Source: a virus (taxonomy: Duplodnaviria > Caudoviricetes). Taken from it: a stretch of DNA of 64,000 nucleotides. Positions 55,119-57,720 of the stretch are shown here, one piece after another (positions within the stretch are counted from its first letter, which is position 1; each line of letters opens with the position of its first letter). The stretch lies in IMG/VR virus record IMGVR_UViG_3300010163_003659, positions 1 through 64,000 of that record, one strand, 5' to 3'. Both the position numbers and the translations under genes were made by a program. The notes below the pieces were generated by a model. The model saw nothing but the letters and a program-made list of their open reading frames with translations, searched no databases and was not told the DNA's origin.

Positions 55119-55361
55119 ATGATAGGGGGAATGGTGGAAATGATGGAAGTGTTTAATGTTATTAGTGGAGTATGTTCCATTGTTGGACTGTCTGTTTCTC
55201 TTTTTACGGCCAGCAAGGTGATTAAAATAACGCAGAACATTAACAGTGGCAATGTAGATGACCATTCAAAGGTTGTTAATGGAGGCAAAGGCAATACATA
55301 TAATGGGCCATATGCAGGGAGGGATTATACGAATGAGACGAGAAGTGGACAACAGAAATAA
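55119..55361 (+). CDS. Small single-TM protein with C-terminal amyloid-like motif
   Basis: Hydrophobic VFNVISGVCSIVGLSVSLFTA, then N/G-rich tail with GNTYNGPYAGRDY; start may be 55131-55143. Confidence 0.75.
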   Translation: MIGGMVEMMEVFNVISGVCSIVGLSVSLFTASKVIKITQNINSGNVDDHSKVVNGGKGNTYNGPYAGRDYTNETRSGQQK

Positions 55362-57720
55362 AGACAGCAATTTCTATGGGCCATATGCTGGCAGGGATAT
55401 GAATGTTACCAATATCATAATGCTTCAAGATTCAGAGCGTGAATTTGTCGTTACGCACAATGCTGATATTAAGCCAGTGTCATATTTCACAGGCAGGGAA
55501 ACGGAACTGGAAGAACTGCGTCAGAGGATAGATGAGGGACGCAAGTCGGTTCTGGTGAGTGGCATGGGCGGTATTGGTAAGACTCATATCTGCAGGAAGT
55601 TGTTTGAAGAGTACACCAATAAACATGCGAAAGGTGAAAATATACCTTTCTGCCATATTGGATATATTGAGTACAATGGGGACATGGGCAGCAGTTTACA
55701 GAACTGTCTAAAATTTAAGGAACAGGATAACCCAGAACAGAACCAGGCGGCAGCGTGGAAAGAATTAGAATATTTGGCAGCAGACGGGAAACTGTTGCTG
55801 TTTGTTGACAATGTGAATGTGTCGGTGAGGGAGGATGCAGGGCTGGAAAGGCTGAAACAGATTCCTGGAGCAGTGGTGCTGACTTCCAGAAGGACATCTT
55901 TCGGCAAGGAGTTTGAACCGTACAGGATTGGTTTTTTGAGTACAGAGCAATGCATAATGGTTTATGAGAAAATCCGGTATGAGAATAGCAGCAAGAAAGT
56001 GCCGGAAGAAGAGATACTGGATTTAGAATATATCATAGAGAATATGGCAGCAGGACATACCATTACCATTGAATTTTTTGCACATTTAGCCGAAACAAAG
56101 CAATGGAGTATAAAAAGGCTGCGTGAGGAACTGGACAGCAAAGGGTTTCGGTTGGAATACAAGGATGAAGAGGACAAGTTGATAAATATTCAGGAAGAAT
56201 ATGAAAAGTTGTATGATTTGTCTGTTCTGACAGAGGCGGAAGGGAACATACTGGAGGCGTTTTCTGTATTTCCGTATATTCCTTTATCTGCGGAAATTTG
56301 TAATCAATGGTTGCTTTTTGATGCGGGGGCAAGTGAAGATGATGATATTCTGATGGGACTGTATCAAAAAGGGTGGTTGCAGTTTGATGTGGAGCAGGAG
56401 AGCTATGCTATGCATCCAGTATTTGCAAAGTTTATTGATGAGAGGAAGAAACCAAAATTTGAAGAGCATCGTGGATTGATAGAGGTATGTCAAAAGTGTT
56501 TGGAAATACCAGAAAACGGCTCTGCTTTGGATTGTCAAAGATATATTCCGTTTGCAGAAAATATTATAAAAAAGATAGATATGAAATCAAGTATAAAGGA
56601 AGCAAGATTTATAACAGAACTTGCTTATTTGTTGCAATATATAGCAGAGCATGAAAAAGCGGAGGAATTGTATGAAAAAAGTTTGAGAATACAGGAAAGA
56701 GTGCTGGGGGAAGAACATTCAGATACCGTTGCGATCTATAATAATCTGGCATATGTATATAATTGCCAAGGAGAGTACAAAAGATCGAAAGAGCTATATG
56801 AAAAGAGTCTGTGGATAAGGGAAAAAGTGTTTGGAGAGAAACATCCAGCTATGGCATACGATTATAATAATTTGGCAATGATGTATGAGAGGCAAGGGAG
56901 ATATAGGGAGTCAGAGGACTCGGTTGTTGATAATATGGAGAATGAAGGAAGTGCAAGAAAAAGAGAAAGACGAAGAAAAGGAAATATTTTTGGAAATGTA
57001 CTATCAATAATTTCTTTGGTAATTAGTTTATTATCGTTATTGATATCTTACAGGACTATCCAATTAGAAGAAGTGGAATATCAACCGCATTTTATTTGTA
57101 CTACAAAAAATAATGAGGAATATAAAAAACCTGAAAGTTTCTATTTTAAGATTCACACGATTAAAAATATTGGAGTGCCGATATCTAACGTGGAATTTGA
57201 TATACAAGAAGTTTTATGTTTTCAAAGGGCTTTAACCAGTGAAAGTATGGATGTGTTGATTTGGAAAAAAACAGATATTCTAAACGAGGATAAAGATATT
57301 AAATACGATTTAGATAAACAAGAAATTGTAATTGAAGGAATCCGTTTAGAATATATAGAATATATGCTTAATAGCTATTTTAACAGTGATAGCAATATTT
57401 TTTTTTATGAGCCATATCGCATTAAAGTATATAATGTGACTTGTAAAAGAATCTTAAATATACAGTATACAAATAGGGAGGGCGTAAACTGTAGGGAATG
57501 TTATGAGTTAAAAGAAAATCATATTTCTCTTTTAGACAAAATTGTGAAACGTGAAGATTATAACGAAATAGTTGATTTTATACATGGAAGTAAGTATGAA
57601 TTAGGGGAGGTGTATCAAGATAATATGGAACAAGCACAAGATATGATAACTAATATGTTGGGAATTAATATAGAAAGAGAGAAAGAGGAGTTAGCAAAAC
57701 AATATAACAAGAAAGATTAA
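55333..57720 (+). CDS. Second NLR-like NB-ARC-TPR protein, fused to TM plus C-terminal domain
   Basis: Close paralogue of 51140-53521 (EREFVVTHNADIKPVSYFTGRETEL, GMGGIGKT); 3 TPRs then a TM helix; GGAGG RBS before ATG 55333. Confidence 0.85.
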   Translation: MRREVDNRNKDSNFYGPYAGRDMNVTNIIMLQDSEREFVVTHNADIKPVSYFTGRETELEELRQRIDEGRKSVLVSGMGGIGKTHICRKLFEEYTNKHAKGENIPFCHIGYIEYNGDMGSSLQNCLKFKEQDNPEQNQAAAWKELEYLAADGKLLLFVDNVNVSVREDAGLERLKQIPGAVVLTSRRTSFGKEFEPYRIGFLSTEQCIMVYEKIRYENSSKKVPEEEILDLEYIIENMAAGHTITIEFFAHLAETKQWSIKRLREELDSKGFRLEYKDEEDKLINIQEEYEKLYDLSVLTEAEGNILEAFSVFPYIPLSAEICNQWLLFDAGASEDDDILMGLYQKGWLQFDVEQESYAMHPVFAKFIDERKKPKFEEHRGLIEVCQKCLEIPENGSALDCQRYIPFAENIIKKIDMKSSIKEARFITELAYLLQYIAEHEKAEELYEKSLRIQERVLGEEHSDTVAIYNNLAYVYNCQGEYKRSKELYEKSLWIREKVFGEKHPAMAYDYNNLAMMYERQGRYRESEDSVVDNMENEGSARKRERRRKGNIFGNVLSIISLVISLLSLLISYRTIQLEEVEYQPHFICTTKNNEEYKKPESFYFKIHTIKNIGVPISNVEFDIQEVLCFQRALTSESMDVLIWKKTDILNEDKDIKYDLDKQEIVIEGIRLEYIEYMLNSYFNSDSNIFFYEPYRIKVYNVTCKRILNIQYTNREGVNCRECYELKENHISLLDKIVKREDYNEIVDFIHGSKYELGEVYQDNMEQAQDMITNMLGINIEREKEELAKQYNKKD

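Follow-up and report, generated by a model that had tools for sequence, protein, structure and literature searches.

BASS pairs consist of an effector bearing a C-terminal motif and a receptor bearing an N-terminal motif, encoded by collinear and often overlapping genes (bioRxiv 10.1101/2020.01.06.895854). Pairs combining the Bell domain, which is about 100 residues long, with BASS1-10 have been reported only from multicellular Actinobacteria, Cyanobacteria, Chloroflexi, and Archaea (bioRxiv 10.1101/2020.01.06.895854). In prophages of Escherichia coli, the Bab/Agp system, which uses BASS11, has been shown experimentally to mediate abortive infection by amyloid templating, with phage infection triggering motif assembly and membrane damage, and BASS11 has also been found with TIR, NACHT, and NB-ARC proteins (Ibarlosa et al., bioRxiv 10.1101/2024.11.07.622273). 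Here, we describe a candidate relative of these systems in a 64,000-nucleotide stretch of viral DNA (Duplodnaviria; Caudoviricetes), positions 1 to 64,000 of the IMG/VR record IMGVR_UViG_3300010163_003659, referred to below as the window; the record itself is a 95.9-kb provirus of which the window is a part. Two overlapping genes in the window encode a 72-residue membrane peptide and an NLR-type receptor, NLR2, and the two proteins share a short motif, hereafter the tag. Based on their sequences and on analogy with the systems above, we propose, with somewhat better than even confidence, that the peptide acts as effector and NLR2 as sensor in a module of two prophage-borne genes, of the abortive-infection type, that operates by tag-templated, amyloid-like recruitment.

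The closest known systems are Bab/Agp and the Bell/BASS-NLR pairs. As in BASS pairs, the putative effector and NLR genes are adjacent, collinear, and overlapping (by 29 nucleotides in the window), a tag of about 19 residues is located at the C-terminus of the effector and the N-terminus of the NLR (BASS motifs are about 15-25 residues long), and the receptor is composed of NB-ARC and TPR without an effector domain of its own. In contrast to BASS pairs, there is no Bell/HeLo-like helical bundle, the peptide being modeled as one helix (residues 2-38) with a disordered tail. The Bell/BASS1-10 pairs are similar to the window pair in combining NB-ARC with TPR repeats and in having TIR2 as an alternative effector (Dyrka et al., bioRxiv 10.1101/2020.01.06.895854), but the window pair differs from them in residing in a gut Bacillota prophage, in lacking a Bell domain, in its Lys- and Asp-rich tag, and in that the tag of the related TIR partner is N-terminal rather than C-terminal. 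Bab/Agp is likewise found in a prophage defense island; however, Bab is a 109-residue protein in which four helices cup a hydrophobic helix (the Babybell fold), whereas the peptide is one helix without a sheath, and the Agp sensor is of the TPR-GreA/B-C-PIN type in E. coli, as opposed to NB-ARC/TPR in Lachnospiraceae. A further parallel is HET-S/NWD2 of Podospora anserina, where the N-terminal motif of an NLR templates the matching motif of an adjacently encoded, membrane-targeting killer, as we propose here; but in HET-S the HeLo bundle comprises 220 residues, the prion domain has two repeats, and activation expels a buried helix, while the peptide has nothing to expel. All-in-one NLRs such as Avs and bNACHT resemble the window system in their STAND ATPase, C-terminal repeat sensor, N-terminal output, and phage defense by cell death, but their effector is fused to the receptor, whereas that of the window would be a separate gene product joined by the tag. 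A PADLOC search with the receptors gave weak matches only.

An earlier reading of the DNA without database searches (the sequence-only reading) had described a protein of about 75-80 residues encoded upstream of NLR2. The corresponding 80-codon open reading frame (ORF) at 55119-55361 is present as described, but the start is most likely ATG 55140 (73 residues) or ATG 55143 (72 residues), because 72 residues is the modal length of the family; the gene had already been called in the source assembly. Using the N-terminal half of NLR2 as a genome query, 21 loci were retrieved, plus 2 IMG/VR virus contigs. Where a taxon is given, all 21 genome loci are from bins or isolates annotated as Clostridia (mainly Lachnospiraceae), several of them with Mouse Gastrointestinal Bacteria Catalogue (MGBC) labels, and one is from Eubacterium plexicaudatum ASF492 (locus L015). 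At 13 of the 23 loci, an ORF of 70-79 residues with the same helix and tail was found directly upstream, overlapping the start of the receptor, and a search of metagenomes and virus contigs with the peptide alignment yielded 49 further loci, among which every close-type peptide with downstream sequence present was followed by an NB-ARC receptor as the next gene, overlapping by 23-29 nucleotides. The search for short transmembrane ORFs upstream of NLR homologs that the sequence-only reading had suggested was productive, with the peptide ORF found at the 13 loci and at about 40 more; in all, the peptide is directly upstream of an NB-ARC/TPR receptor in about 50 loci of mouse-gut Lachnospiraceae and their prophages, and the overlap is 23-29 nucleotides in nearly all of them. 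The peptide gene and the receptor gene are a conserved, overlapping pair, and they are probably translationally coupled.

The close relatives of the peptide form 88 clusters with a modal length of 72 residues. Across 15 distinct 72-codon genes, the ratio of nonsynonymous to synonymous substitution rates (dN/dS) was 0.11 for the helix and 0.25 for the linker and tag, with dS > 1, and pairwise helix differences at codon positions 1, 2, and 3 were 0.21, 0.06, and 0.46. Together, the roughly 50 loci, the 88 clusters, and a dN/dS of about 0.1-0.25 confirm that the small ORF is a real gene conserved upstream of NLR2 homologs, contrary to the refuting condition that the sequence-only reading had named. 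When 300 genomes were sampled evenly from the family to which ASF492 belongs, ASF492 itself was the only one with the close peptide type, one marginal match (E = 8.9e-4) aside, and the module is thus sporadic, as expected of mobile defense genes. The peptide had no significant match in Pfam (one weak DUF5362 match fell below the cut-off) and none in PADLOC or PHROG. Its profile had no significant match among PDB sequences, where only chance matches to membrane proteins were returned at E of at least 2, and an ESM Atlas search with the peptide recovered only unnamed Bacillota clusters, probably the family itself.

The sequence-only reading had also noted that the peptide and NLR2 both carry GPYAGRD, encoded by DNA copies (55303-55325 and 55376-55398) identical at 21 of 23 positions. 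Both observations hold, although alignment of relatives extends the shared motif to a tag of about 19 residues. The spacing between the copies is 73 nucleotides in all but three of 31 distinct pairs (70 nucleotides in two, 244 in one), and the copies are read in different frames. Over the 16 columns preceding G-R-D, the 31 true pairs had a mean of 6.94 identities compared to 5.59 for mismatched pairs (permutation p = 2e-5), and the excess was unchanged after collapsing the data to 23 tag types. When the receptor tag was shuffled within itself, the identities fell to 1.37 (standard deviation 0.2), and a chance origin of the match is therefore excluded. At loci such as L022, L010, L057, and L080, both partners have changed together, either at the aromatic position or in the residues preceding it. 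Published BASS motifs have much G, N, Q, V, and I and little K, P, and L; the tag follows this composition only in part, with abundant G, N, and V and scarce P and L, and departs from it in its Lys, Asp, and Gln contents.

Codon usage was informative as to the age of the match. The same codon is used at only 131 of the 303 residues (43%) identical in both copies, and the Arg codons differ systematically, with the peptide G-R-D encoded by GGGAGGGAY in 26 of 32 loci and the receptor G-R-D employing mostly CGT-type Arg codons. Both features show that the tag match is old and has been kept by selection on the proteins, rather than arising by recent duplication. The window copies use the same codon at 6 of 10 shared residues; their 21/23 identity is at the high end of the family and may include a local conversion event. 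The GGGAGGGAY of the peptide copy is the Shine-Dalgarno sequence of the receptor gene, which places a second, translational constraint on this copy. The assignment of the GGAGG within the first copy as the NLR2 ribosome-binding site was accordingly upheld by its position, 10 nucleotides before the ATG, and by the fixation of purine-rich Arg codons in the peptide copy only. A programmed frameshift or read-through fusing peptide and receptor was also considered, but a fusion conserved in the family is unlikely given that a stop directly precedes the receptor ATG in the receptor frame at 13 of 18 peptide-bearing genome and virus loci.

The peptide is dominated by a hydrophobic helix at residues 3-23, with a 19-residue Kyte-Doolittle mean of 2.42 for residues 3-21. 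The acidic residue 2 before this helix and Lys 25 and Lys 28 after it predict, via the positive-inside rule, that the N-terminus is outside and the tail in the cytoplasm. G9, C11, S12, G15, and F21 are invariant in the 88 clusters, and L16, V18, S19, T22, and A23 are conserved in 98-99% of them; this near-invariance of nearly all helix residues points to a helix that packs specifically against other helices and not to a passive anchor. AlphaFold2, supplied with 37 sequences, modeled the peptide as one helix spanning residues 2-38, confident to about residue 30, followed by an unstructured tail (residues 39-72), and no helical bundle was present in the model. Because the bundle is missing, the peptide is not a Bell, Babybell, or HeLo domain. 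The suggestion that it acts as a HET-S/Bell-type membrane effector is consequently not sustained, and its mechanism would have to differ from the regulated release of a buried helix.

A second module in the window, module 1, has the same organization, with a TIR protein in the position of the peptide and a receptor, NLR1, in that of NLR2. As the sequence-only reading had recognized, the two receptors are close paralogs (70% protein identity over 453 residues and 78-82% DNA identity from about 51230/55420 onward), and a G-x-Y-x-G core occurs in all four proteins. It had further argued that a modular adaptor wires one NLR chassis to either an NADase or a peptide. In a tree of 49 receptors built from the 350 residues after the tag, six TIR-paired receptors were scattered among peptide-paired ones; partner type switched at least 5 times on well-supported branches, and two strongly supported sister pairs were of unlike type. 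The partners observed on this chassis are a TIR protein, the membrane peptide, or a fused metallophosphoesterase. The last is represented by three receptors with an N-terminal calcineurin-like phosphoesterase, which together form a single group neighboring a receptor of the peptide-paired type. Of the tag, only its second half remains in these fusions; one has it intact, another has it altered, and in the third it is degraded, as would be expected if the tag is dispensable once the effector is fused. The interspersion of TIR-paired and peptide-paired receptors on the tree supports a swappable adaptor on one receptor chassis.

The specificity of the tags is clear at the class level, where peptide tags match TIR-class receptor tags at a mean of only 3.0 of 16 positions. 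Over the same 16 columns, the window peptide tag has 7 matches to NLR2 and 5 to NLR1, while the window TIR tag has 5 matches to NLR1 and 4 to NLR2, although the ungapped anchoring underestimates identity for TIR pairs with a one-residue indel. The two tag classes are diverged versions of one scaffold, and with so modest a separation within the window the orthogonality of its two tags is plausible but unproven. Overall, the interpretation offered by the sequence-only reading is supported in part. A separate observation concerns locus L077 (4001-4256), where an orphan 64-residue peptide is followed by an overlapping 31-codon ORF at the usual receptor start; another receptor, itself complete, lies upstream of this orphan and is preceded by no partner gene. 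The locus is evidence of module turnover and decay.

A profile search of 1.84 billion representatives retrieved 189 clusters at E <= 0.001. Members of this broader family are mostly 50-75 residues long and share the N-terminal helix signature, a linker rich in Asn, Lys, and Ser, and a tail that terminates in a motif of the type G-[RG]-[DN]. The gene neighborhoods of seven distant members were inspected. Three of the seven were directly upstream of operons encoding a CTD12 or CTD10 protein, an MC6/MC8 protein, and a DUF2326 ATPase (L084-86, L089, and L093), which by their domains correspond to ABC-3C/Lamassu components. In all three operons, the CTD protein has no effector domain and begins with a close copy of the peptide tail. 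Two other members had different partners, again sharing the tail, one had no evident partner, and one was a 243-residue form whose short contigs contained no sensor gene. Lamassu (ABC-3C) comprises the LmuA effector-CTD protein, the LmuC middle component, and the SMC-like ATPase LmuB; the peptide relatives that precede such operons are distant ones and lie outside the window, and the first protein of these operons differs from LmuA in having the peptide tail motif in place of an N-terminal effector domain. Activation of the effector in Lamassu occurs by oligomerization (PMC12663957). This independent recurrence puts the peptide where an effector domain would normally be found, and no other finding speaks as strongly for reading it as an effector. 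Diverged peptide relatives with a class-1-like tail were also observed at L067 (3001-6149) and L056. Their neighbors, a repeat-containing membrane Ser/Thr kinase and a helix-turn-helix (HTH) protein, showed no tag that matched.

We envision the following mechanism for the pair. The peptide would reside in the membrane, its N-terminus facing outward and the unstructured tail with the tag extending into the cytoplasm. Upon detection of infection, the NB-ARC/TPR sensor would oligomerize, bringing its N-terminal tags together. Once clustered, these tags would take on a stacked beta (amyloid-like) structure, recruiting tags of the identical type from many peptides and templating them. Clustered in turn, the highly conserved helices of the peptides, rich in small residues, would then break the membrane barrier and kill the cell. 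Since the peptide lacks a helical sheath, control would be exerted by induced clustering rather than by release of a buried helix. We favor amyloid-like templating over other mechanisms because the layout equals that of the BASS pairs and Bab/Agp, and the effector role is suggested by the paralogous module, in which a TIR domain, a known effector type, takes the peptide's position. More tentatively, and with rather less than even confidence, we suggest that the peptide may belong to a large family of sheath-less, tag-bearing, single-helix executioners recruited in trans by unrelated sensors (NB-ARC/TPR receptors, Lamassu-type SMC complexes, and others) via private tags. Such a peptide would be a portable minimal effector fired purely by templated clustering, with the tag setting which sensor fires which effector when modules share one cell.

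Several points weigh against this proposal. The covariation between partners may be inflated by shared ancestry, and phylogenetically independent contrasts of column-by-column covariation numbered only 1-2 on supported branches, leaving that analysis without power. The conservation of the peptide G-R-D is partly explained by its role as a ribosome-binding site. The tag differs from published BASS motifs in its Lys content (13% on the peptide side), its Asp content (12% on the receptor side), and its near lack of Gln (about 0-1%), and ladders of charged residues are unfavorable in in-register amyloids. A bare transmembrane helix would be constantly in the membrane, raising the question of what keeps the peptide harmless before activation. 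Finally, the NLR2 of the window has lost the greater part of its TPR array and ends instead in a membrane domain of foreign origin, and this copy may therefore work atypically.

The structure of NLR2 bears on whether the window pair is still functional. Its start at 55333 corresponds to that of its relatives, and NB-ARC and TPR are the only domains detected by Pfam, with no effector domain of its own. It retains two to three TPR units, compared to 7-8 detected stretches in NLR1, and its predicted transmembrane helix is followed by a domain of about 220 residues. The C-terminal 266 residues were matched in none of the other receptor loci and had no Pfam or PHROG match, and a single-sequence AlphaFold2 prediction of the C-terminal domain gave no usable fold (pLDDT 32). 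Its sole outside relative is P0095, a 338-residue protein of a syntenic prophage (L075:4001-5017), in which the C-terminal domain is joined directly after the peptide module and the NB-ARC part is missing, with breakpoints corresponding to window positions 55253 and 56920. The NLR2 fusion was found unchanged in one other assembly. Receptors among the relatives range from 441 to 1187 residues, with widely variable repeat numbers. The fusion may be either a crippling deletion or a membrane-spanning receptor.

It is possible, if somewhat unlikely, that module 2, the peptide-NLR2 module, is a decaying remnant in this prophage, in which a deletion fused NLR2 to a downstream membrane gene such that the pair no longer signals even though the family does. 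The shortened TPR array (2-3 units against the 7-8 stretches of NLR1), the 266 unmatched C-terminal residues, the joining of the same domain to a peptide module lacking the NB-ARC part in the syntenic prophage, and the existence of orphan peptides with receptor remnants are all consistent with decay. However, the fusion is encoded by an uninterrupted frame of 795 codons that recurs without change in a second assembly, and the peptide, the tag, the promoter-like element, and the P-loop region are all intact. Receptors of the family also differ widely in length, and NLR2 may alternatively be a receptor that spans the membrane and has a domain on the outside.

With respect to mechanism, the main rival is a non-amyloid homotypic adaptor, in which the tag, as a short beta-hairpin or strand-addition element, binds one peptide tail to one receptor N-terminus either constitutively or after activation, so that oligomerization of the receptor clusters a fixed number of helices without self-propagating templating. 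We consider this unlikely, although the charged (Lys, Arg, Asp) and almost Gln-free tag, the more acidic receptor side and more basic peptide side, which would suit a hetero-interface, and the retention of the second tag half beside NB-ARC in the phosphoesterase fusions, as if it were structural in the receptor, all favor it. The unstructured tail in the AlphaFold2 model of the peptide alone fits both models. What tips the balance toward templating is that every experimentally tested motif with such a layout (HET-S/NWD2, BASS1, BASS3, and BASS11) has proven to be amyloid-forming, and that the tag has the alternating, Gly-interrupted pattern and the length of about 20 residues of the tested amyloid motifs. 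Moreover, killing by a handful of helices would demand more of each helix than killing by a templated polymer.

A quite improbable alternative is that the peptide is a membrane anchor or regulator that tethers or restrains the receptor via the tag, with toxicity residing elsewhere, for example in the neighboring two-helix membrane protein or in the receptor itself. Proteins with a SEC-C motif and CyanoTRADDas_TM proteins do recur just upstream of the pair, and the window NLR2 has its own predicted transmembrane segment, but many pairs have no such neighbors, and the near-invariance of almost every helix residue exceeds the needs of an anchor. In addition, the peptide takes the slot of the TIR protein or the fused phosphoesterase on sister receptors, and that of the missing effector domain in Lamassu-type operons. 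The last explanation, that the match is a by-product of recent local duplication or gene overlap and the small ORF nonfunctional, might have been entertained from the unusually similar window copies (21/23 identical, same codon at 6 of 10 shared residues), but is refuted by the conservation of the ORF under purifying selection in about 50 loci and by family copies that differ at most synonymous sites.

The features of the window and of the related loci are collected in Table 1. Genes around the two modules encode an antirepressor, an HTH/M78 repressor-type protein, a Uma2-family protein, and a DnaD-like loader, which places both modules in a prophage accessory region. Between the modules are genes for a SEC-C-motif protein and a two-helix membrane protein (CyanoTRADDas_TM), a combination that recurs just upstream of the peptide-receptor pair at several distinct loci and may be either a separate defense cassette or an accessory of the pair. 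The CyanoTRADDas_TM protein is 85-96% identical between loci, while the receptors are less conserved. Within NLR1, the region 52463-53344 contains 6-7 TPR units of 126 bp in tandem, and long stretches of some of them are identical; NLR2 retains only two units. A promoter-like element precedes module 2 (region 55030-55145), and the same TTGCGT/17-nucleotide/TATAAT arrangement is present upstream of the TIR gene (region 50360-50470) and in the syntenic locus L075, suggesting that whole cassettes, including the promoter, have been duplicated or exchanged. A consensus promoter scan did not return this element, the first hexamer of which matches at 3 of 6 positions.

Table 1. Coordinates of the module features in the window and of related loci elsewhere
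Feature	Position	Strand	Basis or remark
Module 1 effector, TIR protein with class-1 tag at N-terminus	50467..51120	+	Pfam TIR_2, E = 6e-17, residues 49-161; start (50467) picked by comparison with relatives
Module 1 receptor NLR1: tag, NB-ARC, long TPR array	51140..53521	+	Pfam
SEC-C-motif protein and two-helix membrane protein (CyanoTRADDas_TM), between modules	53696..54907	+	Pfam matches
Module 2 promoter-like element: TTGCGT, 17 nucleotides, TATAAT	55075..55103	+	Putative; direct reading and conservation
G-run, likely ribosome-binding site of peptide gene	55125..55129	+	Putative; 10 nucleotides before ATG 55140, 13 before ATG 55143
Peptide gene (72 residues)	55143..55361 (alternative starts 55140, 55119)	+	Relatives, dN/dS
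Hydrophobic helix of peptide, residues 3-23	55149..55211	+	
Peptide copy of tag, residues 43-61, ending G-R-D	55269..55325	+	Alignment with receptor copy, 31 distinct pairs
GGAGG, NLR2 ribosome-binding site within peptide G-R-D codons	55318..55322	+	10 nucleotides before ATG 55333
NLR2: tag, NB-ARC, two to three TPR units, foreign membrane domain	55333..57720	+	Pfam NB-ARC residues 56-284, TPR_12/TPR_10 about 419-529
NLR2 copy of tag, residues 4-22	55342..55398	+	Alignment, 31 distinct pairs
NLR2 C-terminal 266 residues: basic stretch, predicted transmembrane helix (about 56986-57051), unknown domain	56920..57717	+	
Phosphoesterase-receptor fusions	L017:1888-4488, L020:183-2831, L023:6-1439		Calcineurin-like domain before remaining half-tag
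Peptide relatives overlapping first gene of Lamassu/ABC-3C-type operons	L084:3501-4221, L089:889-1603, L093:3001-3745		

Compared to the described systems, four points appear to be new: the sheath-less single-helix effector, the gut Bacillota prophage hosts, the repeated exchange of TIR protein, peptide, and fused phosphoesterase on one chassis, and the apparent Lamassu-type use of the peptide family. The papers searched contained no description of these points, including none of a peptide-tail motif replacing the effector domain of Lamassu. If our proposal is correct, an amyloid-type immune effector can be reduced to a single transmembrane helix and a tag of about 20 residues, which would make this the smallest such system so far, and the lack of an autoinhibitory bundle would pose the mechanistic question of how a bare helix stays harmless. 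The repeated exchange of partners on one chassis amounts to a natural experiment on tag sequence and wiring specificity, and because one pair is found in E. plexicaudatum ASF492, a named isolate rather than a metagenome bin, experiments are within reach. Tag-based signaling would then extend from filamentous bacteria and E. coli to the prophages of gut Bacillota and, apparently, to Lamassu-type systems.

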